This document shows positions 2,647 through 26,271 of a stretch of 30,596 nucleotides of DNA, in pieces. Made by a program: the position numbers and the translations under genes. Each line of letters begins with the position of its first letter. Position 1 is the stretch's first letter. This stretch comes from a candidate division WOR-3 bacterium. Lineage in GTDB: Bacteria; Hydrothermota; Tepidihabitantia; Tepidihabitantales; CAIPLT01. The stretch spans positions 7,781-38,376 of the forward strand of contig CBFGJZ010000015.1 in NCBI GenBank assembly GCA_965649215.1, given 5' to 3'. A model generated the notes under the pieces. It did no database searches. It was given only the letters and a program-made list of their open reading frames with translations, and was not told the origin of the DNA.

Positions 2647-4779
2647 CTAATCAACGAGTACTCTTTTATAAGTATATTGCTTATTAACATCGCTCAGCAA
2701 AAGAAAATAACAGCCCTTATTTAGTCTTTCGGTAAGTTTAAATATACCATTATTACTATAACTTTGATATATTCTCTTACCTGAGATATCATAAATCCTT
2801 AAATACAAAATATCGCTGTTATTATTTAGTATCTTAATTTGATTTGACGACATTAACAGGATTGGTTTATCAGTAGGATTTGATATTTCTTCTGTGACTG
2901 CACTACTTACCACATTACAACTACTTACTAAATAATCATTAACAGGATTTACATCATTAGCCAATTTGGTTGAACATTTCACGACATAACTACCGATATT
3001 AGTTGCATTCCAAACTGAATCAAAAATGAACTCATACTCTAAACCTGCATTAAGACCTACTCTTTGACTTGCTTGCCAATTACCAATTCTAAAATCAACA
3101 TCAAAATTCTCCCGCAGATTACCAAAGTTCTTAATCACAGCTCGGGGTTGAATTAACGAACCCTGGGTGATATTTCCGACTGGTGCAACAATTGAGATAA
3201 CTCCAACATCTTTAACTCTTACAAAAGTACGGCCGGTAATAGAATCATTTGACCTTCGTTGGTCATTGGGGATATATACTTTACATTTATAGTTTTGATA
3301 AGAACGACTTAATAAGGTGCACGGTGTAAAATTAATAAGCATTGAATCATTGGCATTGAGATTGACATTAACAGTTTGCAGATAAAAATCACCAACACTT
3401 AAGGTAACAGGAAAAGATTCAAAACCCGTGCCATAGTTCTTAACGATTGCCTGCGGATTAATTACCGCACCCGAGTCAACCATTGTTACAAAACCACTCA
3501 ATGAAACTACTCCAACATCATTATTAATATCGAGATAAGCGCTATAAGAAAATGGTAAAGCTCCCGTATTATATTCCCATTGACAAGCAGTTGGGATTAA
3601 AGCGAAATGGTCATGCTCACCCCAGGCAAGAGTATCACCACCATTACCATTAGTATTTAAAGGTATCTCATATACAGTGGAGAGTCCATTAGGACGATAT
3701 CCGATAATATGGCACTTCCAACGATACACACTCTGAGCATTGAAATAGACCCTTAAATCACCACCGCCATTAGTAAATTGAATATAACTTGTCCCACCTG
3801 GATTTGAAACCGCTGAATTTCCTTGGTCGCCCGTTGCTGGATAACTATTATGATTTCTTAAAATACGGACTTGTGGCCAAAGATGTCCTTCTTTATAATA
3901 ATGCAAAGTATCTGCCCGATTGCCTGTAAAATAACGCCAAACCGCATATTCTTTTAAAGCATTAACTAAATTAGAGCCATATTGATTTGTTAAAATATAT
4001 TCCATACCTGAAATTGTATTCTGACCGGCAATAGTACCTTGATAATGCCACATTTGACGAACACAGTCGTTACCAAAGCGTTCGGTTAAGTACATAGGCC
4101 AAACACAACCAGCATACTGATACACATTATTAAAAGTATTAATTGGATACTCGGGTGTTGTAAATGGCCCTGGCGAAGTTGACAGAAATCCTAAATAATC
4201 ATTATACTCATCATAAACAATCTCTTCGCTCCAAGTTGCACAATTCTCCATCCACCATGAACCTTCGTTACTGCTATAACGAAATTGAATTGCATGATGA
4301 AACTCATGGCAAGTTGTTGATTTTAAATAATTATAATCCATGTCAACACCAACTCGAAAATGCGAACAAACACCATCGGGATAGGGATTGGGATAACTAT
4401 TTTCAGCATAAGTCACGCCGGCAATACCTGATGGTAATGCTTTAATATAAACATCATAGCGATTATCACCACCTTGATTATAGTCTGGTGGGGGTGGTGC
4501 CCATCCGAGTGTATCAACTAACTTTGCCCAACTATAACGCATTGCACTTGCAACCGTTTCAGCATAAGCAACAGAAACCGCATCAGTCCCTTGGGTTGTA
4601 AAATGAACTCGAAAATTAGTATCTTCAATATATTGGACTGGACCAGATAAAGTTGGTCGGGCTCTTCTCACGCCTAATCGCCATTCTTCTAAAGCAGGGA
4701 TTGTTCCACACCAATCAGTCGCCGGTCGGCTATAAATAAAACTTATAACAATAAATAATAAAATAACAATTTTTTTCAT
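2647..4779 (-). CDS. Secreted zinc metalloprotease (MXAN_6640-like) with two Ig-like repeats and a T9SS-type CTD
   Basis: Signal peptide MKKIVILLFIVISFIYS; HEFHHAIQ zinc motif followed by WWMENCATW; two DVGV...VKN(Y/F)G Ig-like repeats; C-terminal IYDISGK...KGCYFL...KRVLVD. Confidence 0.8.
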   Translation of the reverse strand: MKKIVILLFIVISFIYSRPATDWCGTIPALEEWRLGVRRARPTLSGPVQYIEDTNFRVHFTTQGTDAVSVAYAETVASAMRYSWAKLVDTLGWAPPPPDYNQGGDNRYDVYIKALPSGIAGVTYAENSYPNPYPDGVCSHFRVGVDMDYNYLKSTTCHEFHHAIQFRYSSNEGSWWMENCATWSEEIVYDEYNDYLGFLSTSPGPFTTPEYPINTFNNVYQYAGCVWPMYLTERFGNDCVRQMWHYQGTIAGQNTISGMEYILTNQYGSNLVNALKEYAVWRYFTGNRADTLHYYKEGHLWPQVRILRNHNSYPATGDQGNSAVSNPGGTSYIQFTNGGGDLRVYFNAQSVYRWKCHIIGYRPNGLSTVYEIPLNTNGNGGDTLAWGEHDHFALIPTACQWEYNTGALPFSYSAYLDINNDVGVVSLSGFVTMVDSGAVINPQAIVKNYGTGFESFPVTLSVGDFYLQTVNVNLNANDSMLINFTPCTLLSRSYQNYKCKVYIPNDQRRSNDSITGRTFVRVKDVGVISIVAPVGNITQGSLIQPRAVIKNFGNLRENFDVDFRIGNWQASQRVGLNAGLEYEFIFDSVWNATNIGSYVVKCSTKLANDVNPVNDYLVSSCNVVSSAVTEEISNPTDKPILLMSSNQIKILNNNSDILYLRIYDISGKRIYQSYSNNGIFKLTERLNKGCYFLLLSDVNKQYTYKRVLVD

Positions 4780-13225: not shown

Positions 13226-13720
13226 ATGAAACATTGTAGTCTTTGTCAAAAACCCGAAGTTACTATTATCATTACGACCATTGATAAAGATGGAAAAGTT
13301 TGTGAGCTTGCTTTGTGTAAGGAATGCGCCGAAAAAAAGGGTGTCGGTGAAATAAAAAAATCTTTTCTCCCCCCTCAAGTTATCTTATCTGAACTCCAAG
13401 AAAAAATCACTAATGATGATTATCAATTAACTTGTCCTGCTTGTGGTATCTCCTATGCTGATTTTCGTAAACATGGTCGTTTAGGTTGTGAAAATTGTTA
13501 TCTCGCATTTAGTGAAAAATTGGAAGTACTTATTAAACGATTGCACGGCACAACCAGTCATATTGGTAAATCGGTCACACCCAGTAAAAAACTAGTTGCC
13601 GATCGTTTTGAAATAAAAAAATTACAGTTGAGTCTCAAAAAAGCAATCCAAGAAGAAGATTATGAAAGAGCTGCTGCGATTCGTGATCAAATTCGTCAAA
13701 TTCGGCAAAACACAACATAA
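13226..13720 (+). CDS. mcsA: Protein-arginine kinase activator McsA
   Basis: Four CxxC pairs, GRLGCxxCY, HG...HIGK, C-terminal UVR motif EDYERAAAIRDQI; adjacent to mcsB. Confidence 0.93.
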   Translation: MKHCSLCQKPEVTIIITTIDKDGKVCELALCKECAEKKGVGEIKKSFLPPQVILSELQEKITNDDYQLTCPACGISYADFRKHGRLGCENCYLAFSEKLEVLIKRLHGTTSHIGKSVTPSKKLVADRFEIKKLQLSLKKAIQEEDYERAAAIRDQIRQIRQNTT

Positions 13721-14838
13721 TGATGCGTAACGAAGCTTTAACTCTAATAAATAAAACGGTCCCGCCTTGGCTTGACCAAGAAAGTCAAAATTCTTCGATT
13801 GTCATTTCAAGTCGTGTTCGGTATGCGCGAAATTTAGCTGGTATTCCTTTTCCCAACCGCGCATCTAACTATGAATTAAACCAAGTATATAATATGATAA
13901 GCGAAAGTATTAAAAAAGATTCTGATCTGAAAACAATTTTTCCTGTTCACAATCCTATTGCGTTAGATAGAATTACGCGACTGCAAGCAGAATTTCTCTT
14001 AGAACGACACCTTATCTCTCCTGATTTTGCTCAGAAATGTATACCCCGCAAAGATATAAAAAATAATCATCATCTCAAAGCATATGGTGTTGCCGTTAGT
14101 GAAGATGAAACTGTCAGTTTAATGATTAATGAAGAAGATCATATGCGTCTTCAAGTGATTATGAGCGGATTGAATTTTGAACAAGGTTTTAATCGTCTAA
14201 ATTATATTGATAATAAATTTGAATCTTTACTTCGCTATGCTTACTCACCTCGCTATGGTTATCTTACCGCTTGTCCAAGTAATATTGGTACTGCATTGCG
14301 GGCATCCATCTTAATACATCTCCCGGCTTTGGTGATTACCAAAGAAATTGAAAAGACCCTTCGTGCAATTTGGCAAATTAATTATATGGTTCGTGGTCTT
14401 TATGGCGAAGGCACAGAAACTAAAGGCTATCTTTTCCAAATATCCAATACTAGTAGTTTGGGACAATCTGAAGCTGATATCATAACCAATATTACCAAAA
14501 TCGCTCAGGAATTAGTTAATTATGAAGAACAATCACGTGAATATTTACTTAAAAATATGAAATTAGAAATTGAAGATAAGATTTATCGCGCTTATGGTTT
14601 ATTAACGAGTGCTCGTCTCTTAAGCAGTGAAGAAGCATTAAATCTTTTAGCAACGGTACGACTTGGCGTCGCAACCCAAATTTTAACTAATGTTTCATTA
14701 AGCACTTTAAATAAAATTATGATTCTTTTAAAACCTGCTAATTTACAATTATTCTATAATCAGAAAATGACACCTCAGGAAAGAGATGAAAAACGTGCTT
14801 CCCTTATTCGTCAAATTTTATCCGAACAAAAAAATTAA
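13720..14838 (+). CDS. mcsB: Protein-arginine kinase McsB
   Basis: SSRVRYARN, ERHLIS, MINEEDHMR, GYLTACPSNIGT, VRGLYGEG, FQISN; TAATG overlap with mcsA. Confidence 0.94.
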   Translation: MMRNEALTLINKTVPPWLDQESQNSSIVISSRVRYARNLAGIPFPNRASNYELNQVYNMISESIKKDSDLKTIFPVHNPIALDRITRLQAEFLLERHLISPDFAQKCIPRKDIKNNHHLKAYGVAVSEDETVSLMINEEDHMRLQVIMSGLNFEQGFNRLNYIDNKFESLLRYAYSPRYGYLTACPSNIGTALRASILIHLPALVITKEIEKTLRAIWQINYMVRGLYGEGTETKGYLFQISNTSSLGQSEADIITNITKIAQELVNYEEQSREYLLKNMKLEIEDKIYRAYGLLTSARLLSSEEALNLLATVRLGVATQILTNVSLSTLNKIMILLKPANLQLFYNQKMTPQERDEKRASLIRQILSEQKN

Positions 14839-14925: not shown

Positions 14926-15771
14926 ATGCATTTTGATTTTGCGAACGCATCTTATCAAGAAGCAGATTATATTATTGTTGGCATTCCTTATGACCGAAGT
15001 AGTTCTTTTGTCCCCGGCAACCGCTTTGGACCTGCTTTTGCTCGGATCGCTTCTATGAATGTTGAAAGTTATAGTCCTTATTTTCAAAAAGATTTAAATA
15101 GTTTAAATATCCATGATGCTGGTGATCTTAACTTACTCTTTAGCTCAACCAAACAAACCTTTACGCAAATTCAACGCTCGATTCGAAAACATTTACTCAA
15201 AAATAAACGAGTCCTCGTAGTTGGTGGAGAACATACAATTACAATACCGATCGTACACGAATTATCAAGACATTATCCGAATTTATACTTAATTCAACTT
15301 GATGCTCATTCGGATACTCGCGATGAATTATTAGGCGATAAATATTCCCATGCTACCGTTATTAAACGTATTCGCGAATTCCTGCCCGAAAAACGCATTT
15401 ATCAATTGGGTCTTCGCTCCACAACTTCTCCTCAAGAAAACCCTCAACAATATCTATTCTCGGTTCAAAAATATCTCGATAATATTCAAAAACACATTGG
15501 CCGTAATCCTTGTTATCTAACTTTAGATATCGATGTCTTAGATTGCGGTATTTTCCCCGCAGTACAAACACCAGTACCCAATGGCATAAGTTATCAAGAG
15601 CTTTTTAATTCAATTATCAAATTAAGCAAATCAAATATTATTGGTTGTGACATTGTCGAATACAACCCAATGATTTCTAACAGTCTAACTTATGCATCAG
15701 TGATTGCAGAAATCATTCGAGAATTAATTCTGATGATGTCTCAATCACAGTTTAAATATGCACCCAAATAA
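14926..15771 (+). CDS. speB: Agmatinase (ureohydrolase family)
   Basis: GIPYD...RFGP, GGEHTIT, DAHSD, DIDVLD and TPVPNG motifs. Confidence 0.88.
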   Translation: MHFDFANASYQEADYIIVGIPYDRSSSFVPGNRFGPAFARIASMNVESYSPYFQKDLNSLNIHDAGDLNLLFSSTKQTFTQIQRSIRKHLLKNKRVLVVGGEHTITIPIVHELSRHYPNLYLIQLDAHSDTRDELLGDKYSHATVIKRIREFLPEKRIYQLGLRSTTSPQENPQQYLFSVQKYLDNIQKHIGRNPCYLTLDIDVLDCGIFPAVQTPVPNGISYQELFNSIIKLSKSNIIGCDIVEYNPMISNSLTYASVIAEIIRELILMMSQSQFKYAPK

Positions 15772-15853
15772 AAACCATCTTCTTGAATCTTTATTAACTT
15801 TATTTAAGTTATATCCTCAAGAAGATAACCTATTAAGAGGAGGATTTTAAAGT

Positions 15854-16018
15854 ATGTGTTGTCGCGCTTGTTCGGGCTATGATATCTGTCAGAGTAAAGC
15901 CCAACTTAGAGATGATTGTTGCACTCAATGTAAATATTTTACTTCTTGTATGGATTTACCGGAAGAAGAACGAGAAAAACCAAAACCCAATGCGTCGAAA
16001 AAAAGATTTAATCGTTAA
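15854..16018 (+). CDS. Cys-rich microprotein A (54 aa, basic C-terminal end)
   Basis: Below the ORF-track length cutoff. GAGGAGG SD; translation MCCRACSGYDICQSKAQLRDDCCTQCKYFTSCMDLPEEEREKPKPNASKKRFNR; Cys pattern identical to the neighbouring ORF. Confidence 0.85.
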   Translation: MCCRACSGYDICQSKAQLRDDCCTQCKYFTSCMDLPEEEREKPKPNASKKRFNR

Positions 16019-16065
16019 TGATTATTCTTTATAATTTAAAAGGACTAAAGTAAAAAGGAGGGAAA

Positions 16066-16221
16066 ATGTGTTGCGAAGTATGTCCTTATTATGATGAATG
16101 TCGCGATATGGAAACGCTCAATGAAAATTGTTGTCCTGAATGTCCTGATTATGAAGAATGCCAAGCGAATGAAAAATACGACGAAGAAGATACAGATTTT
16201 ATCGCGGATGACGAATACTAA
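16066..16221 (+). CDS. Cys-rich microprotein B (51 aa, acidic)
   Basis: Below the ORF-track length cutoff. AAAGGAGG SD; translation MCCEVCPYYDECRDMETLNENCCPECPDYEECQANEKYDEEDTDFIADDEY; its stop overlaps the convergent gene's stop by 4 nt. Confidence 0.87.
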   Translation: MCCEVCPYYDECRDMETLNENCCPECPDYEECQANEKYDEEDTDFIADDEY

Positions 16222-18308
16222 TTAACCACCGCAAATTTTAAAATTAACTTCTCTTTTGGTGTTGTTACGAGCGCTAAATAAATACCCGTAGCAATATTAA
16301 TTGGTCTCCACCTTACACCGCAATAAATAGGATTGGTCAATAATTCACAAATATAATTTCCCTGTAAGTCAAATATTTTAATTTTTGCAGATTGTGGCAA
16401 ACTATCAAAAGTTATCACTGAATGAATGGTTTTACTAAACGGATTAGGATATATTCTTACCCGATTGAGAGTAGTTGTTGATGTTATCTGAAAATTATAT
16501 TGACTAATCCCTTCTTTTGTCGCAATAAGTAAAAAACCATTTTCTTCATCAACATATAACCATTGGTAAAATTTTTCGTCATTATCTTCATTCGCGATTA
16601 TGCCACAATTAGAAGCTGTATAGTGTGACCACCGATTAGAAAATATATCATAAGAAGATAGACCTTGCGGATGTAACATCCACACCCTACCCCATTTATC
16701 TGATTTAATTCGAACGACTTTATCATTGAGAATCTGTGAATTGGTAGTATTATAGGTACGAAAAGTATCTTTTTCTAAAATAACCGCTCCTTGATTTGTC
16801 GCACACCAAACTCGATTATTAAGATCAACTGTTAGCGACATAATTTCTAAATAGGAATAGATTTTTGAAACAATATCAGATAAATTATTATCATTATATT
16901 TTATTCGCAATAAACCGCCTGACCAACCTAACCAGCCTGTATTTTCTCTATCAAAAACTAATTCATACCCATGTTTTTCAGGTCTCGATAGCCCTGGTAT
17001 TGTAAATTCATAAACTGAATCGTCCGTAAGGGCGATCAAAGTATTAGCTTGGTTATGAAACCATTTAACTTGATTATTATCAATCCCTAAGGCACCAACA
17101 ACTCCTTTAAGTCCAGACCAACTTTTTACTAACCATGAGTCATTAATTGGATCATATCGAGTCAATCCTCCATTAAGTATCCAATGACCAAACCAAATAT
17201 AATTGTCATTATCTATAACTGCAATATAACTATTTGCAATCGAATCCAATAAAATTTGCCAATTGTTATTTGACTTCTTTAAACTGATTATTTGATTACC
17301 AACCGGATAGTGCATTGCATAAATATTGCCCTCGCGATCAGAAATTGCACTTGAAACAATATTCATTGCTAATCCATTATTTTTAAACTCCTGCCAACTG
17401 TTATTTTGTTGTAATTGTAGACCTCCCCCCAGATAAACATAACCACCCACTCCAAGCCAAAGTCCATTGGAAAATAAAATTGAACGAGTATCTTCGTTAA
17501 AAATAAAAGATAAATTATTACCATTGTATTGTAATAGACCATTGCGGGTTGCCACATAAAATTTATTATCATAATAAGCTAGATCAAAAATTGTATATCG
17601 CTCGGGAAATAATACTACCATCTCAAACCCCGTTCCATTAAAACGAGCAATGCCTTGTTCTGTGGCAATGTGCAAAGTATCATTGACAACAAGCATTGCT
17701 TTGACAGAATCACCAAACGGATGTAAAATGATATTGTAATTTTGGAGATTACGGTTTAACCTAATAAGTCCAGGACACGCACTAATCCAAAAATCATTAT
17801 GCACGCCTATCGCAAATACTTGGCACGAAACTTGACTTGGTAAGATTCGAGCCATGACTACATCGTCATCTATTGATGCCGTACCTCGGGTATCAATCAC
17901 AATAAGACCATTTTGAGTGCCTGCTAAAATTGTATCTCCGCTCCGTGCTAAACAATTAATTGTATTCTGTTCTATTGAACCTAAATCGCGATAACAGTTT
18001 ATTTGTTTTGTGGTGGGGTCAAAGATTGCAATACCACGATTTGTCCCGAGCCACAATTTTTGATTGCTATCAAATAACAGACAATTTATCCGATTTGAAG
18101 GTATGCCATCAACATTAGTATAAACTCGTATAAAACTACTTTCACTTTTGGAAAAAACTGTGAAACCACCGCGTGTTGCGCAGTAGAGATAATCATTGTC
18201 TGCAGTTATATCGTTAATAAAATTAGTATTCGTATATGTCTTCCATGCGTTGCCGATTGCAACATTGATGAGGATAACAGTTGTAAAAAATATCTGTTTT
18301 ATTGTAAT
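16218..18308 (-). CDS. PorZ-like / two-component-regulator-type beta-propeller protein with CTD (about 696 aa; start extended to ATT 18308)
   Basis: The frame is open 84 codons upstream of the track's TTG start, adding a signal peptide and WKTYTNTNFINDI...YCATRGG...YTNVDGIPSN propeller blades. C-terminus IYPNPF...IFDLQG...TGIYLA...KFAVVN. Confidence 0.75.
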   Translation of the reverse strand: MTIKQIFFTTVILINVAIGNAWKTYTNTNFINDITADNDYLYCATRGGFTVFSKSESSFIRVYTNVDGIPSNRINCLLFDSNQKLWLGTNRGIAIFDPTTKQINCYRDLGSIEQNTINCLARSGDTILAGTQNGLIVIDTRGTASIDDDVVMARILPSQVSCQVFAIGVHNDFWISACPGLIRLNRNLQNYNIILHPFGDSVKAMLVVNDTLHIATEQGIARFNGTGFEMVVLFPERYTIFDLAYYDNKFYVATRNGLLQYNGNNLSFIFNEDTRSILFSNGLWLGVGGYVYLGGGLQLQQNNSWQEFKNNGLAMNIVSSAISDREGNIYAMHYPVGNQIISLKKSNNNWQILLDSIANSYIAVIDNDNYIWFGHWILNGGLTRYDPINDSWLVKSWSGLKGVVGALGIDNNQVKWFHNQANTLIALTDDSVYEFTIPGLSRPEKHGYELVFDRENTGWLGWSGGLLRIKYNDNNLSDIVSKIYSYLEIMSLTVDLNNRVWCATNQGAVILEKDTFRTYNTTNSQILNDKVVRIKSDKWGRVWMLHPQGLSSYDIFSNRWSHYTASNCGIIANEDNDEKFYQWLYVDEENGFLLIATKEGISQYNFQITSTTTLNRVRIYPNPFSKTIHSVITFDSLPQSAKIKIFDLQGNYICELLTNPIYCGVRWRPINIATGIYLALVTTPKEKLILKFAVVN

Positions 18309-19730: not shown

Positions 19731-21206
19731 CTAACTTGTGATTGTCTTAATCAACTTTTTTTGGTGATTGAAGATATCGATCGTTAATTTGAGCGTGCCT
19801 AAACTATGTGAAGCACATCCAAAACATGGGTCATAAGCTCTGAAAAACATCTCCACCATATTCAAGACACCTTCATCCCATTGTGTCTTGTTTTGATTTG
19901 GTCTTATTAATTCTTTAGCAGCATTACGAATTGACATATTTATAACCCCATTGTTATTGGTTGTGGCAACAATCATATTTACTTTTTTAATTAATCGATC
20001 ATCAGTTAATTCATAATGATGGAACAAGGTACCCCGCGCCGCTTCAACAACGCCAATGCCGCTCTCTTGAAAATGAAAATCTAAATTCCGAATCTTAGTG
20101 CCGGTAATTTCTGAATCCGTAATTAATTCAATAGCTCGTTCAGTTGCATATAATAACTCAATCAATCGTGCCCAGTGAAATGCTAAAGTACTAGTCACGG
20201 GTTTGGTATGAAAAGTCTCATACATTATTTTGTATTCTTCGTTGGCTTTTGGTGTTGCCATACCGTCAGCCGCATTCAAACGACCTAAAGGACCAACTCG
20301 ATATAATCCTGAATCAGAACCTTCAGTTAATCCCTTGAAACCAATATCTTTTAAGTATGGTATTTTTACATAAGACCATTCAACAACTGCTTCACCTAAA
20401 TATTTTAGGTAATCTTGGGCTTGAAATTTTATGAATTCTTTTCCGTTTGGGTCAGTAACACGAATTAAACCATCATAAAAATTAACATTATTATTTTTAT
20501 CAACCATACCCATATTATAAACATTTAAACCTAATGCTGGATTAGTTATTAAACTCATATACTGGGGATTTTCAAGCACGATCTTATGGAATAAGTTTAA
20601 TGTTTTAAGGGCAAAATCATAACACGAACGAGCCATTTTTTCAATTTCAGCTCGTTCTTCTGCATTAAGACCTTTGCTAACACCGCCGGGTAGACCGCAA
20701 ACTGGATGCGTTGCTTTGCCACCTAATATCTCGGTAATTTTTTGTCCATATGCGCGATGTTTAATAACCTCACCAGCCAGTTCTAAACCGACTTTTTCAA
20801 TAACCCCTAATATATTTCTTTTCTCCTTCGGAGCAGTAGGACCAACTATAAAATCAGGTCCAGCTAAAAAATAAAAATGTAAGATATGATCGTAAATAAT
20901 ATAACCACAATAAGTCAATTCTCTTAACTCTTTAGCTAAAGTTGGCACTTCCACTCCAAATGCCATATCTAAAGCTTTCGTTGCTGCAAAATGATGTGCT
21001 ACTGGACAGACACCACAAATGCGTGATGTCAATTGCGGCATATCTTCAGCTTTACGACCTTCACAAAACTTTTCAAAACCTCTCAATTCGGGAACTTGTA
21101 GATAGCTTTCCTTTACTTCTCCTTTTTCATCTAAGAAAATCTCGATTTTACCATGTCCTTCTAATCTTGTAATTGGATCAATAGTAATTCTTTTTATATT
21201 TGACAT
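19731..21206 (-). CDS. mvhA: [NiFe] hydrogenase large subunit, group 3 (MvhA-like)
   Basis: TRLEGHG, RGFE, L1 motif [22 protein letters not shown]2 motif [12 protein letters not shown], followed by a 24-aa C-terminal extension. Confidence 0.85.
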
Positions 21207-21210
21207 ATGC

Positions 21211-22200
21211 TTATCTCTTTTTCTTATTAATAATTGCGGCAGCTAAGCCATACATGTAAAAAGTCCCAACTGGGTCTTTAATCTTAGCCGTTAATTTTAA
21301 AACATCTTCTTCACTTAATTTCTTTTCTTCATCAATCTTAAGAATCGAACCGATAGCGCTAATCATCTTTGCGCCTTGATCTAATACTTCAGGAATCGGT
21401 CCTAGGCAACCTGTACAAGGCCAATTGCCATTAATACAACGGGTTTGACAGCCACTTCTAGTTGCAGGTCCCATACAGATAATGCCTTGTTCTAAAAAAC
21501 ATTTTTTATTGTCGGCTTCGATTTCATATATTCGTTTTATATCCGGCATTCTTTTATGTTCACTGGTATTACGAACACACTCATCACAAAGTGCTTTAAT
21601 CGGAGCTAATACCGTTCCTTTCTCGGGCAATTTATTATTAGCAATCACGTCAATTGCATTAGTTATCAATTGTACTGGAGGTGGACACCCTGGCAAGTAA
21701 TAATCAACATCAACAACTCGATTCAAGGGTCGCACTTCATCATAAAATTCCGGAATTGTCAATTCACCTTCTATAACTTGTGATTTCACTTTCGGCATTT
21801 TATTATCAGTATTAACTGTGGAAGCTGTATCTTGATAAACAGTTTTTAAGATTGCTTCTTTACTATGTAAATTAGCCAAACCGGGAATACAACCATGATG
21901 CGCACACGAACCAAATGCAATTAAAACTTTTGCTTTTTTACGCAGTAATTTAGCTAAATGTTCTTGTTCAGAATTACGTACCGAGCCGTTAAAAAAGCAC
22001 ACATCCATATAATTGTCAGGAAAATTTTCCACATCGTTGTATTTTACATCCATTGCCACAGGCCAGAAAACAATATCAGCAAGATTTATCACATCCAAGA
22101 TTTTTTCGTTTAAATCAAGGACTGCGATCTCGCAACCTCCACAAGATGCTGCCCAATAAAAACCAAATTTTAATTTATTATTTGATTGTTTACTCGTCAT
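21211..22200 (-). CDS. mvhG: [NiFe] hydrogenase small subunit (MvhG-like)
   Basis: SCGGCE, GSC, PGCPP proximal cluster ligands; CDEC...KCF...ICMGP...C...C...PCTGC medial and distal ligands; no Tat signal. Confidence 0.85.
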   Translation of the reverse strand: MTSKQSNNKLKFGFYWAASCGGCEIAVLDLNEKILDVINLADIVFWPVAMDVKYNDVENFPDNYMDVCFFNGSVRNSEQEHLAKLLRKKAKVLIAFGSCAHHGCIPGLANLHSKEAILKTVYQDTASTVNTDNKMPKVKSQVIEGELTIPEFYDEVRPLNRVVDVDYYLPGCPPPVQLITNAIDVIANNKLPEKGTVLAPIKALCDECVRNTSEHKRMPDIKRIYEIEADNKKCFLEQGIICMGPATRSGCQTRCINGNWPCTGCLGPIPEVLDQGAKMISAIGSILKIDEEKKLSEEDVLKLTAKIKDPVGTFYMYGLAAAIINKKKR

Positions 22201-22628: not shown

Positions 22629-23258
22629 TTATTTGATAATACCCAACCAATCTCTTAATAAGAATGTTAAACGTCCAATGAGTAAGGAAATACGTGCCAT
22701 TACCGTATAGCCAAACGAAGCACCAAATCCGAGCATAATGAAAATTATACCTGTATAAGACAATGGTTTAAAAATACCTTTACGCTCTTTTGAGAAGAAG
22801 AAATAACTAATGGTTGCAATTACACCTATTAATATTACTACCGCCCAGATTCCGTTATAGAGATAAAGAAAACTTCCCCTGGTCACAATTGTTGCTCGTA
22901 CTTGTTCAACGATTGAAGCGTCAATCGCTCGAGGAATTGAAGCACCTGCTCCATAACCCATTACAACTGCAATCGGAATTCGAACCAGCCAGGAAATTTT
23001 TGGAATAAAACGAGTAAAATACAAAGCGCCAATAATCGCAATTGCAATCAACCACAAACGTTGTCCATGGGCAATCGGATCAATCAAAGCTGGAACTAAA
23101 ACCCGATGCCACACAAAAGTAATTGAATAGCCGTTAGAGATACCGACGAATAAATGTTCGCAAATCCGATAGAATGGATTTTCTTTATATAAGAATGAAA
23201 AAATTCCTAAAGTTAAAATCGCACTTATCCAAATCCAAGGGTTAGTTGAAACGGTCAT
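22629..23258 (-). CDS. Uncharacterised polytopic membrane protein (4th gene of the DUF6754-like module)
   Basis: About six hydrophobic segments; SFLYKENPFYRICEHLFVG and FGASFGYTVMARISLL; GGAGG SD and ATGA overlap with the upstream gene. Confidence 0.85.
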   Translation of the reverse strand: MTVSTNPWIWISAILTLGIFSFLYKENPFYRICEHLFVGISNGYSITFVWHRVLVPALIDPIAHGQRLWLIAIAIIGALYFTRFIPKISWLVRIPIAVVMGYGAGASIPRAIDASIVEQVRATIVTRGSFLYLYNGIWAVVILIGVIATISYFFFSKERKGIFKPLSYTGIIFIMLGFGASFGYTVMARISLLIGRLTFLLRDWLGIIK

Positions 23259-24148
23259 TTTTTCCTCCTGCGCATAACAAAATAACCAATATTACCAATA
23301 ATAATTGTCACCATAATCCAGATATGAGCAGCAGTTTGAGATGACATTGCATCCGTTGCCTTTCTCCGACCATAGACATGACAACGCTCTTCCACCAATT
23401 GTTCATATTCGGCACCGCCTTTCATTCCCGACATCATTCCTGTCACTTGTCCGGAATTAAGATACGGATAAAAATCTGCAGCTTGCACAGCTGTAGAACC
23501 AGCCCCAATTTTTACACCAAACGAAGTTTGAGCATAAGTAATATAATAAAATGGAATTGCACTTCCCGCAATTGAAACTAAAATTGCGACATCATTATAA
23601 TTCTTAATCGTCTTCATCACAGGCAAAGTATCGGTTTTATTGCCATAGTAATCAACTGGAAAAACTTTAGCGATATTTTCACCCATCCCCATAATAGGCA
23701 CTAAAACCGGTGTCTGCCAACCCCAGAACACATAATCACGACCATAAATGATACTATCTTCATAGGTTAAGGCTCGGCTATTAAACTCGTTAGTCACCGT
23801 CGTAATCGCATCTTGTGCTAATCCCAACCCCAGTAAAGAAATACATAAAATCCCCACTTTCACCCGTCGCGCAAACGCATGCCTTAGTAAAGCAATCGAC
23901 ATCGGATGCAATTCAGGCTCTGTATCTGGTGTGTAATCAACAGAAATCACTAAACACTTATCATCAGGAATCGTATCAATATAGTTAAACAATTTTTCTA
24001 CGGGGGGCATTGCTTTGGGTCTTAACTTAAATGGAAAAATCAACGGAATCACCACCACTAACAATAAAAGTAAATAAATGACCCTTCGATCTATTTTCGC
24101 TAATCGTTCCCAACCAGTCATTTTTATATTTTTATCGTTATCCGTCAT
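23255..24148 (-). CDS. Uncharacterised membrane protein, TM-alpha/beta-TM (3rd gene of the module, about 297 aa)
   Basis: Start moved to ATG 24148 because of AGGAGG SD and ATGA overlap with the upstream stop. Motif YPYLNSGQVTGMMSGMKGGAEYE; C-terminal RRRKK. Confidence 0.85.
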   Translation of the reverse strand: MTDNDKNIKMTGWERLAKIDRRVIYLLLLLVVVIPLIFPFKLRPKAMPPVEKLFNYIDTIPDDKCLVISVDYTPDTEPELHPMSIALLRHAFARRVKVGILCISLLGLGLAQDAITTVTNEFNSRALTYEDSIIYGRDYVFWGWQTPVLVPIMGMGENIAKVFPVDYYGNKTDTLPVMKTIKNYNDVAILVSIAGSAIPFYYITYAQTSFGVKIGAGSTAVQAADFYPYLNSGQVTGMMSGMKGGAEYEQLVEERCHVYGRRKATDAMSSQTAAHIWIMVTIIIGNIGYFVMRRRKK

Positions 24149-24804
24149 TTTGTCCCTCCTAACCAACCACGTTCAATACCCAGAATAATCTTGAGCGAAG
24201 TCGCTAACGAACCAAGCGCAATACCAAATCCCATTCCCCGTTTAGCTGCGGTGTTGGGTACCGTTAAAATCCATTCTGCAAATCCTGGTAATTTTGGTAA
24301 AAGATAACTACTTAAAGGCACGGAACCCAACATCATAATAAACGCTGCAACTAAAAGCAAAGTTGCTTCAAAGTTGCGAGCTCGAAATGCTCGATATGCT
24401 GCTGAAGCCATAAAAAATGATAGCATTGCAAACATTGTTGCACCCAACGGAATTGCCATATACATATAGATGGTCTGAATATCAAAATGAAAATTACCGA
24501 TTCTTGTTGGTAACCGGCCGGTTCCTTCAATGCCTCCAAATAAGCCAATTATTGAAGTAGCAACTAAACTAATTAAAAGAATCCAACTATACTCCCAATT
24601 TTCCCGCTTATGCTGGATTTTATACAGATGATGACGAATGATACTACCAACACCTAATACCAATGAAAATGCCGCAATAATTCGTAATACTGAATTCCGA
24701 AACTCATTATCAAAATTTTGAGCAATACTATGAGGAATAATAAAAGGTAAAGCGCCTAAAATACCCGTAACTAAAACTAAAAAAAGTGGTAATCTAATCT
24801 TCAT
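24145..24804 (-). CDS. Uncharacterised polytopic membrane protein (2nd gene of the module)
   Basis: About six hydrophobic segments; FFMASAAYRAFRAR and PNTAAKRG...ILGIER; AAGGAG SD. Confidence 0.85.
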   Translation of the reverse strand: MKIRLPLFLVLVTGILGALPFIIPHSIAQNFDNEFRNSVLRIIAAFSLVLGVGSIIRHHLYKIQHKRENWEYSWILLISLVATSIIGLFGGIEGTGRLPTRIGNFHFDIQTIYMYMAIPLGATMFAMLSFFMASAAYRAFRARNFEATLLLVAAFIMMLGSVPLSSYLLPKLPGFAEWILTVPNTAAKRGMGFGIALGSLATSLKIILGIERGWLGGTK

Positions 24805-24816
24805 ATAACTCCTTAA

Positions 24817-26271
24817 TTAAAAGATATTTAAAACTTGTAAATTTGTTAATAAGCCGATTAAAGTCGCAATAATTAAAATACCCACGATAATTGCTTTTCC
24901 CCAATCCTGACCGATTAAACCCCCTAATAATAATGGTTCTCGGGATAGATAAGCTGATGCTGCATATAACTCTTCACCCATTAAAGTATAATCGCAAGCT
25001 ACAATGAAAAATGGCAATTGCATCACGGAATCGGTTCCGGCAATTTGTACTGCACCCGTTGATGCGCCGGTTTCTGCCAAAATTAATGCTTCAGCATAGA
25101 AATAACCCATAAAGAAATTAGTGGCTGGTCGTTCGCGCGTCATTATACCATCAACTGCTGCTGCATATGCAAATTGACTATCGGTCACAAAATAGACAGA
25201 ATCCGCTTTAAATGCATCAGGACGACCTGCTTGAGTATATGCTTCTTTAACAACTTCTTGAGCTACGGTATAAACAATTGGATCAGTATTGGGCACAATT
25301 AACTGCGAATCATAAGTAGCAATTTTTTTGGCAACTTCACCTAAAATATTCATCGCTGCTATTGTTGCAACATCACTAATACCTGTCAAACCTGGCACAT
25401 AAAGAATTGGTTTTCCCATTTCAGTTGCACGACCAACTGCTTCATCAACGGCTAAAAGACCCGCGATTTTCCGTACAAAAAGATTTGCACCTTTTTTTGC
25501 GCGATTAATGTAATATATAATAAGAAAAGTAAATATCAGCGTGAATATTACGACATTAAATCTTTCTGTATGAAACCACTGTTGTTTTGAAGATACGAAG
25601 TCTGACCATTCTGATGCTGCTGATTCTAAATCCTGCACTGCTAATATCTGATAAGCATATTTTACACCGTCAATCGTGTTTTCATCAATAAATTGATTAC
25701 GACCAGAACCAATAAACCCGACCTGAGTTATGCTTGAAGTGATAATTTTTAATACAACTCGACGATTTCGCCAATATTCTAAAGAATCTTGTGTTACTAA
25801 ATTTTTCTCACCATAACTAATAATACTTATATTAGATGTATCTAATCCTGCGCGTTTAAAATAATTTTGAACTGATTTTGCACGCTTTAGACCAAGAGCA
25901 ACATTATAATCTGAATTACCAATTGGGCAGGTATATCCTTCTAGTAGACATTTATAGTCTTCAGTAATTTTTAAATCTTGTATAATAGCACTAAGCATAT
26001 TTACATCAGATGGTTGAATATCAAAACTATTAAAATCAAAATATATCGTTTTCGATATTACTGAAGAAGAATCTTTTACTTTTCTTAGTATTTTATAACC
26101 TTCTAAAAATTGATCGGATACGGATAACTGCCAGTTAATGATTATTTTACCACCTGCATCATTTGGTGCATCTTTAGCAATTACTTTTGTCGGTGGTTCA
26201 ATATTGTTAGCAAATATCGGTATTACATTTATCAATATGAATATAACGAATAGTGATATTTTAAACTTCAT
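24817..26271 (-). CDS. Signal peptide + FN3 domain with inserted OmpA/Pal-like domain + DUF6754-like membrane domain (1st gene of the module)
   Basis: IYFDFNS...EGYT...YNVALGLKRA...SYGE...NRRV is OmpA-C-like; WQLS...GYKILR and FID...YAYQI are FN3 strands; GRATEMGKP...AEALILAETG...GEELYAASAYLS is recalled as DUF6754 and needs HMM confirmation. Confidence 0.8.
   Translation of the reverse strand: MKFKISLFVIFILINVIPIFANNIEPPTKVIAKDAPNDAGGKIIINWQLSVSDQFLEGYKILRKVKDSSSVISKTIYFDFNSFDIQPSDVNMLSAIIQDLKITEDYKCLLEGYTCPIGNSDYNVALGLKRAKSVQNYFKRAGLDTSNISIISYGEKNLVTQDSLEYWRNRRVVLKIITSSITQVGFIGSGRNQFIDENTIDGVKYAYQILAVQDLESAASEWSDFVSSKQQWFHTERFNVVIFTLIFTFLIIYYINRAKKGANLFVRKIAGLLAVDEAVGRATEMGKPILYVPGLTGISDVATIAAMNILGEVAKKIATYDSQLIVPNTDPIVYTVAQEVVKEAYTQAGRPDAFKADSVYFVTDSQFAYAAAVDGIMTRERPATNFFMGYFYAEALILAETGASTGAVQIAGTDSVMQLPFFIVACDYTLMGEELYAASAYLSREPLLLGGLIGQDWGKAIIVGILIIATLIGLLTNLQVLNIF

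Follow-up and report, generated by a model that had tools for sequence, protein, structure and literature searches.

CX2CX5C-type [4Fe–4S] sites are known from FNR and WhiB-like proteins. According to the excerpts of the papers cited here, the same spacing forms the three-cysteine unit of the [4Fe–4S] site at the N-terminus of NUBP1/Nbp35 (PMC8007109), is present in RseC/RnfF, which forms an O2-sensitive iron–sulphur (Fe–S) cluster (PMC11729352), belongs to the SPASM domain motif as part of CX2CX5CX3C (PMC5715301) and is used as a triad by Dna2/AddB (PMC3439918); peptides of 16 residues can hold a [4Fe4S] cluster (PMC10946529). For Haloferax, the cited excerpts report 43–49 proteins shorter than 70 amino acids (aa) with C(P)XCG pairs (PMC10716476, PMC11241148). 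Here we describe two adjacent genes for microproteins of 54 and 51 aa, designated A and B, that each contain the CX2CX5C spacing twice and have eight cysteines in all. They lie behind an agmatinase gene in a stretch of 30 596 nucleotides (nt), hereafter the window, of contig CBFGJZ010000015.1 from a candidate division WOR-3 bacterium (assembly GCA_965649215.1). On balance, with a probability of about 0.55, we read A and B as an unnamed family of cytoplasmic metal-thiolate proteins of about 50 residues with docking tails, linked to agmatinase by position.

Two microprotein genes of a small, unnamed family

Both open reading frames (ORFs) had been pointed out in an earlier note on this DNA, with strong Shine–Dalgarno (SD) sequences and with cysteine at residues 2, 3, 6, 12, 22, 23, 26 and 32 of each translation. 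All of this was confirmed: AGGAGG stands before each start, the translations agree with those quoted, and A and B each consist of two CC-x2-C-x2-[Y/F]-x2-C modules with nine residues between them. The description of the pair as unannotated is true of the ORF track used for the note, but both exact sequences are already present in public protein collections, with NCBI as the source. A search of the 1.64-Mb genome to which the window belongs found only these two copies of the family.

Matches to A are present in 53 of 61 related genomes and matches to B likewise in 53 of 61, with open frames, the cysteine pattern retained and all five families of the order represented. Across the phylum, the microprotein family with its full cysteine pattern occurs in 59 of 272 genomes. 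Orthologues of A were detected throughout the order with E-values of 1e-12 to 1e-31, and those of B in the taxonomic families f1, f4, f5, f10, f11 and f12 (f, g and L are our own designations for families, genera and loci). The 41 loci retrieved represent 31 distinct places; the unique proteins extracted from them number 29 of the A-type and 19 of the B-type. The ratio of non-synonymous to synonymous substitution rates (dN/dS, Nei–Gojobori method, NG86) was calculated over the 33 ungapped codons of the core. Its median is 0.108 for A, from the 32 of 153 pairs that were usable, and 0.129 for B, from 20 of 91, synonymous sites being saturated in the remaining pairs; with the Cys and Met columns removed, the medians are 0.194 and 0.225. 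TGT and TGC are both used in every invariant Cys column, while the residue itself is constant. Of the unique starts, 33 of 41 in A-types and 35 of 38 in B-types have an SD-like core before them; A-types without one belong mostly to f5 and begin a few nucleotides past the agmatinase stop codon, which suggests translational coupling. Judged from these sequence patterns, A and B are real genes under purifying selection at the protein level and have the appearance of translated genes. Chance ORFs were rejected as a reading of A and B. A leader peptide or attenuator was likewise rejected, as the genes lie downstream of an enzyme gene, have a convergent gene on their other side and show selection on the protein.

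A HMMER profile of 48 sequences was compared with 1.84 billion representative proteins and retrieved 65 clusters at E <=1e-3, including 11 at E <=1e-10. All 65 are 39–91 aa long and nearly all align from residue 1; among these representatives, no larger protein contains the module. The motif begins at residue 2 in 62 of the 65 profile hits, and both modules are intact in 62, the remaining three being without one or two cysteines. Ten of 10 sampled clusters carry either no name or only ‘hypothetical protein’; a close homologue so named comes from a metagenome-assembled genome (MAG) of Candidatus Latescibacteria/Latescibacterota, according to the label given by its depositors. The novelty claimed in the note, according to which A and B resemble no SmtA/BmtA metallothionein, ferredoxin or known precursor of a peptide that is ribosomally synthesized and then modified post-translationally (RiPP), is upheld: neither protein matched Pfam, NCBIfam, PADLOC or PHROGs at permissive thresholds, and a Pfam-A scan at E <=10 returned no family, with neither a metallothionein nor Fer4 among the results. 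The ESM Atlas held only unnamed clusters, with scores below 0.9. Among the literature matches listed for motif and context in a search of main texts, there is no description of this prokaryotic family; the papers listed for CCX2CX5C, CCXXCXXXXXC or CCX2C concern synthetic libraries, plant GASA/snakin peptides and other subjects, not this family. The A/B family is small, narrow and unnamed and stands in no curated family. It is previously undescribed and belongs to a wider kind, the small Cys-rich metal-binding proteins; being confined to uncultured lineages, it has escaped study.

The anatomy of the family was assessed on 141 unique members, pooled from the loci and the profile hits. The C-x2-C-x5-C spacing is present in all 141, since it is the regular expression by which members were selected, and in 62 of the 65 profile hits taken without this selection. 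There are exactly eight cysteines in 133 members. The linker between modules has 9 aa in 130 members, 10 aa in three, 6 aa in seven (A-types of f5) and 15 aa in one. The internal 20-residue duplication described in the note thus holds for A and B; in the family as a whole this period is usual, not universal, because linker length varies. In the A-types of f5 (L036–L040, with which the matching metagenome contigs L062, L067, L070 and L071 were grouped), the linker is three residues shorter and the cysteines stand at 2, 3, 6, 12, 19, 20, 23 and 29. Offset 7 of the module is aromatic or His in all 141 first modules (120 Tyr, 20 Phe and one His) and Tyr or Phe in 138 of 141 second modules, and the residue after the third Cys is Pro in 81 first and 76 second modules. 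In the 48-sequence alignment of A and B, Met1 and the eight cysteines are the sole invariant columns. The shared Cys pattern is far beyond chance. Among curated families, solved structures and the literature found, the module has no counterpart: a tandem CC, x2-C-x5-C and a fixed aromatic, present twice from residue 2 and followed by a charged tail.

The tail is acidic (net charge −3 or lower) in 85 of the 141 members, 35 of which end in Phe or Tyr; it is basic (+1 or higher) in 48 and of another type in eight. For the pair in the window, a basic tail of A and a strongly acidic B had been noted. B does have a net charge of −17 and A one of +3, but the tail of A is mixed, acidic at first and then basic. 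No member contains an apolar run of at least nine residues and therefore none has a signal peptide or membrane segment, in agreement with the note, which saw no signal or leader in either protein.

AlphaFold2 (AF2) models based on deep alignments predict the same core for A and B, in which a Cys knuckle runs into a short helix (residues 9–15) and, past a turn, another knuckle into a helix that begins at residue 29; the helices of the B model span residues 9–15 and 29–39. The predicted local distance difference test score (pLDDT) is 77–83 in the core and 52–62 in the tail of A (mean 69.6), and 79–84 and 53–63 in the corresponding parts of B (mean 71.7). Foldseek found no match to either model in the Protein Data Bank (PDB) at E <=10, and in a wide VIA-align comparison none of 48 161 chains reached Z >=2 with the B model; both nulls say little when the core is probably metal-dependent and has only about 35 residues.

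Paralogues, distribution and gene neighbourhood

A maximum-likelihood tree of 137 unique cores groups the true A-types with basic tails, 48 in all, as a single clade on a long stem (SH-aLRT 99), and acidic forms fill the rest; the tree is based on only 35 columns, has no outgroup root and leaves most of its forks unresolved. Five entries labelled A by charge are near-neutral distant singletons and lie outside the A clade. Every member from outside the bacterial class of the window is acidic or neutral, and in distant lineages one acidic form stands alone. From such sequence comparisons, A appears to be derived from an acidic B-like ancestor.

Both A and B are found in f1 (except genus g2), f4, f5 and two sister families, f10 and f11; f2 and f3 have A alone, genus g2 of f1 and family f12 have B alone, and neither is present in 11 of 44 f2 genomes. 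This distribution indicates that the A/B duplication predates the order and that each paralogue was lost independently; by their sequences, the two are old paralogues. Because A-only, B-only, neither and single acidic forms exist, an obligate A–B heterodimer is excluded. The electrostatic pairing of A with B suggested in the note consequently fails as an obligate arrangement, but in f1, f4, f5, f10 and f11 the two do lie one behind the other, with 3 to about 250 nt between them, and a facultative heterodimer is possible. The net charge of A is +2 to +8 where B is present and 0 to +3 in the A-only f2, a comparison confounded by phylogeny and GC content. A complex prediction with A, B and four Zn gave a score of 0.00, which counts neither for nor against binding. 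The duplication, in which tail charge was reversed and the core remained frozen, offers a clean natural experiment in the retargeting of a microprotein by its disordered tail.

The features of the locus are listed in table 1.

Table 1. Agmatinase, microproteins A and B and the convergent gene in the window (positions count from the first nucleotide of the window).
Feature	Position	Strand	Evidence or remark
Agmatinase, speB-type, arginase family	14926..15771	+	NCBIfam TIGR01230 equivalog, 238.1 bits (cut-off 174.3); Pfam PF00491, E 4.9e-63
SD core AGGAGG of microprotein A	15838..15843	+	10 nt 5' of ATG
Microprotein A (ORF A), 54 aa	15854..16018	+	ORF, orthologues, dN/dS
8-Cys core of A, codons 2–32	15857–15949	+	
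Tail of A	15950–16015	+	acidic patch, then basic end
SD core AGGAGG of microprotein B	16056..16061	+	4 nt 5' of ATG
Microprotein B (ORF B), 51 aa	16066..16221	+	ORF, orthologues, dN/dS
8-Cys core of B, codons 2–32	16069–16161	+	
Tail of B	16162–16218	+	acidic, last residue Tyr
Convergent T9SS-sorted PorZ-like protein	16218..18056	−	NCBIfam: Por_Secre_tail, 29.6 bits (cut-off 23); PorZ, 88.6 bits (below cut-off 260)

The constant neighbour of the microproteins is agmatinase. In the order, 31 of 31 loci have an ORF of about 275–295 aa with PF00491 as the next gene upstream, in the same orientation, and an arginase-family gene is upstream also in the sister families f10, f11 and f12. Further genome and metagenome contigs bearing A or B have the same arrangement by ORF size and position, and Pfam confirmed it in five of the five scanned (L050, L053, L057, L058 and L062). 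The gene upstream of agmatinase codes for McsB in two f1 loci (L001 and L028), for GMP synthase in L015 and for LpxB in L014. On the downstream side of the microproteins, a convergent Reg_prop/type IX secretion system (T9SS) protein is found in most f1, f2 and f4 loci and PTPS in f3; in f5, PPIase and SurA-like genes follow in the same orientation, with no convergent T9SS protein. The note had tied the pair to the stress genes mcsA/mcsB and did not mention agmatinase. This context has to be corrected, as McsB was seen upstream of agmatinase only in f1 loci. A and B are probably co-transcribed with agmatinase.

The linkage to agmatinase is best regarded as positional and not as a dependency, because agmatinase persists without the microproteins and distant members of the family sit elsewhere. 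Agmatinase is present in 216 of the 272 genomes of the phylum, compared with 59 for the microprotein. It is kept in nine of the 11 f2 genomes without microprotein, and no Cys-rich ORF follows it in six of six informative cases among these, the next gene coming after 17–155 nt; a seventh case was left out as the contig end is too near agmatinase. The microprotein is also absent from three of three outgroup genomes (f6, f13 and f14). Distant acidic singletons were scanned at 10 loci, none of which has an arginase-family neighbour; the genes beside them are for PmbA/TldD, for a GT1 glycosyltransferase (accompanied by unassigned ORFs and a dual-specificity phosphatase), for GH65 or for ApbE. NCBIfam gave nothing for the unassigned neighbours of these singletons.

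Two recurrent arrangements were observed around such singletons. At L074:3703-6459 and L075:879-3636, a distant acidic singleton is followed by a 410-aa ORF, a dual-specificity phosphatase (DSPc) and a 366-aa ORF; the 410-aa and 366-aa ORFs have no Pfam or NCBIfam match. In L065, L066, L068 and L069, acidic singletons are preceded by a pair of PmbA/TldD metallopeptidase genes and followed by genes for a TPR protein and GpsA. In the tree, these four cluster with the B-types of the window's class, at low resolution.

The convergent PorZ-like gene is context and lies outside the microprotein system. Its stop codon (16218-16220) overlaps that of B (16219-16221), the overlap including the last sense codon of B, so that the two genes have no intergenic space. 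No terminator-like site was detected between the two genes, the promoter and terminator scan being at the level of shuffled sequence, and an E-value scan of positions 15600-16400 with Rfam gave one row, at chance level. Directly upstream of agmatinase in the window (13226-14838, plus strand) are genes for an McsA-like activator, which has a UVR motif and scores 103.5 bits with the NCBIfam McsA model (under the cut-off of 210), and for the protein arginine kinase McsB (NF002194, 391.1 bits, cut-off 385); a system of arginine phosphorylation here adjoins an enzyme of arginine-derived polyamines. Genes for the large (PF00374) and small (PF01058) subunits of a NiFe hydrogenase lie 3.5 kb downstream of the microproteins (19731-22200, minus strand) and point to an anaerobic or hydrogen-metabolizing host. 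Elsewhere in the window, no Pfam family was found at E <=1e-5 in a 710-aa ORF (2647-4779, minus strand) or in three consecutive ORFs of 209, 303 and 219 aa (22629-24804, minus strand); the gene next after these three (24817-26271) is an OmpA + DUF6754 combination.

A putative metal-thiolate core and its alternatives

Metal ligation is the only common reason for a pattern of eight thiols, two aromatics and a Met-Cys-Cys start, and disulfides are unlikely in cytoplasmic proteins of an organism that carries a hydrogenase. What we infer is that A and B bind a metal, the identity of that metal, docking through the tails and a common transcript with agmatinase. In the reading that we favour, the folded part would be residues 1–33, with two modules that start straight after the initiator Met and eight invariant thiolates that hold the metal. 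That the motif is fixed at residue 2 suggests a place for the N-terminus at or near the metal site. Removal of Met before Cys is expected from the specificity of methionine aminopeptidase, and the N-terminus of A and B would then be Cys. The C-terminal 20 residues would form a disordered, charged docking arm, acidic and often ending in Phe or Tyr in the ancestral B-like form and basic in the derived A. In B-like forms, the acidic arm with Phe or Tyr at its end is similar to acidic C-terminal tails that serve interactions elsewhere; for the basic arm of A, the binding partner could be nucleic acid, ribosomes or B. Having arisen by a duplication older than the order, A and B would occupy an operon-like place behind agmatinase and ride its transcript, and they would be neither accessories of agmatinase nor dependent on each other.

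As to the metal, we lean tentatively, at less than even odds, towards Fe–S, and give structural zinc the next place as a serious possibility. One or two Fe–S clusters might be bound, each CX2CX5C triad ligating a [4Fe–4S] cluster together with a fourth Cys from the tandem CC, in the style of a minimal ferredoxin. Fe–S is favoured over zinc because CX2CX5C recurs in [4Fe–4S] sites, because 16-residue peptides suffice for such a cluster and because of the parallel with clostridial ferredoxin; the Pro after the third Cys in many modules and the NiFe hydrogenase in the window add to this lean. A more specific version, which we consider improbable, is a mini-ferredoxin with a 32-residue duplicated core, in which each CCx2Cx5C module ligates a cubane, the first of them with the N-terminal Cys exposed by Met removal, and in which fold and Cys spacing would be unrelated to those of the classical CxxCxxCxxxCP ferredoxins. 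The acidic and basic tails would then route the same redox core to different partners, or a charge-matched heterodimer would couple redox to arginine/polyamine metabolism.

Several points weigh against the metal-thiolate reading as we have drawn it. No computation here tells Fe–S from Zn, and a knuckle followed by a helix, as in the models, is classic zinc-finger geometry too. The AF2 core folds at a pLDDT of about 80 without cofactor, a core span of 31 residues would shield two cubane clusters poorly, and the known CX2CX5C sites draw their fourth Cys from afar, not from an adjacent Cys. We infer the acidic ancestry of A from a tree of few columns and without an outgroup root, and the strict linkage to agmatinase in all 31 loci could reflect a functional tie specific to the lineage.

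Among the rival explanations, the one to be taken most seriously, although we find it unlikely, is that of structural zinc-finger microproteins, with Zn(Cys)4 in each module or a cross-braced pair. The basic-tailed A would bind nucleic acid or the ribosome, and B would be an acidic mimic or antagonist of A that binds its tail or competes for its target, in line with the pairing suggested in the note. The predicted topology, a Cys knuckle and then a helix, twice, suits this explanation, and small Cys4 zinc-finger microproteins are common in prokaryotes; the tandem arrangement in five families, and the more basic A where B is present, with the confounding already mentioned, would suit a working pair. 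However, such pairing is clearly not obligatory, the modules are not of the C(P)XCG or CxxC...CxxC type, a single Zn site would not usually have four Cys packed into 11 residues with two of them in tandem, and no nucleic-acid-binding family was matched in Pfam or NCBIfam. There are genes for metallochaperones beside that of the Ni-dependent arginase-family guanidine hydrolase, and on this model A and B could be a metallochaperone or regulator of agmatinase, or B an acidic polyamine buffer. We hold this to be quite improbable. The arginase-family gene is indeed constant upstream, in the order and in f10, f11 and f12, while the outer neighbours vary; the gene in the window passes the agmatinase equivalog cut-off, and translational coupling is suggested for the f5 A-types. 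Against an accessory role stand the much wider occurrence of agmatinase in the phylum, its retention in most of the f2 genomes without microprotein, with a clean absence of the microprotein gene in the informative cases, the distant singletons without an arginase-family neighbour and, as a matter of general knowledge, the poor suitability of thiolate ligands for the Mn2+ of agmatinases.

The idea of a metallothionein-like pair, put forward in the note, fits poorly, and we give very little credence to metallothionein-like buffers for thiophilic metals (Zn, Cu or Cd). Cys does make up 25 per cent of the core, and the genes are small, with strong SDs and cytoplasmic products. Metallothioneins are usually aromatic-free and variable; here, both modules keep their aromatics, the Cys register does not vary, the core is structured in the models, the charged tails have been retained and no Pfam metallothionein matches at E <=10. 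Least credible of all are Cys-rich RiPP or bacteriocin precursors with the charged tail as a follower peptide. They would account for short Cys-rich peptides in tandem paralogous copies and for a core at the extreme N-terminus, as in follower-type precursors. Yet no radical-SAM, cyclodehydratase, lanthionine-enzyme, protease or exporter family is found among the neighbours scanned, no NCBIfam precursor matches, the conserved neighbour is a housekeeping enzyme and the core is predicted to be folded. Proteins of about 50 aa are short enough for chemical synthesis or simple anaerobic expression, and spectroscopy could tell a new Fe–S scaffold from a new zinc knuckle.

Comparison with known systems

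Some candidates were rejected on sequence features. Rubredoxin and desulforedoxin gave no Pfam match, and a desulforedoxin-like CxxC-x15-CC was rejected because the C3xxC6-x15-C22C23 spacing is not conserved, 11 of 141 members having a linker of 6, 10 or 15 aa instead. A SCIFF, ranthipeptide or sactipeptide precursor was rejected as well, since there is no leader, no Radical_SAM among the neighbours scanned and no NCBIfam match. The twin-Cx9C (CHCH) spacing, as in the complex I subunit NDUFS5/NIPM, is reproduced by C2-x9-C12 and C22-x9-C32, and CHCH-type complex I subunits are the best two and sole rows of the PDB sequence-profile search, both non-significant (E 1.8 and 2.5). The AF2 helices do not cover the Cx9C pairs, which the models do not place on a helical hairpin. 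CHCH proteins are disulfide-stabilized proteins of the eukaryotic intermembrane space, and A and B are cytoplasmic proteins of anaerobes.

The bacterial metallothioneins SmtA/BmtA are also small, Cys-rich and without a signal peptide; A and B differ from them in their conserved aromatics, rigid register, structured core and charged tails, and Metallothio_Pro was rejected with the Pfam-A result. The clostridial 2x[4Fe–4S] ferredoxin, with about 55 aa, eight Cys, an internal duplication and an acidic character, resembles A and B in size, in its two quartets, in the repeat, in the acidic (for A and B, ancestral) form and in the anaerobic host, and also in the Pro after a ligand Cys, found in about half of the A/B family members. 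A and B are unlike Fer4 ferredoxins in having CCx2Cx5C and not CxxCxxCxxxCP, a core of 31 residues versus about 38–45 and a long charged tail; a true 2x[4Fe–4S] ferredoxin of the Fer4 clan was rejected because its motif is lacking and neither Pfam nor NCBIfam gave a match. The C(P)XCG microproteins of Haloferax volcanii, for example HVO_0758, are likewise stand-alone proteins of less than 70 aa with little beyond a Cys4 site, and the cited excerpts give their functions as mostly regulatory or unknown (PMC10716476, PMC11241148, PMC6562870). A and B differ from them in having eight Cys and not four, another motif, a bacterial host and no detectable homology; a C(P)XCG zinc-finger microprotein was rejected, as neither A nor B has CPxCG or CxxCG, their knuckles being CxxC[S/P].

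A further comparison is with the CX2CX5C [4Fe–4S] sites of NUBP1/Nbp35, RseC/RnfF, SPASM and Dna2/AddB. No sequence homology of A or B to these proteins was detected with Pfam, NCBIfam or the PDB profile search. Each A/B module has the same C-x2-C-x5-C, which in the described sites, as far as the excerpts cited above go, supplies three of four ligands. Those sites are parts of large proteins and have a remote fourth Cys, whereas the A/B triad has an adjacent Cys before it, is duplicated and makes up nearly the whole protein. Ligand spacing and a fourth Cys are thus present in both modules of A and of B, each module being a putative site for a cluster.

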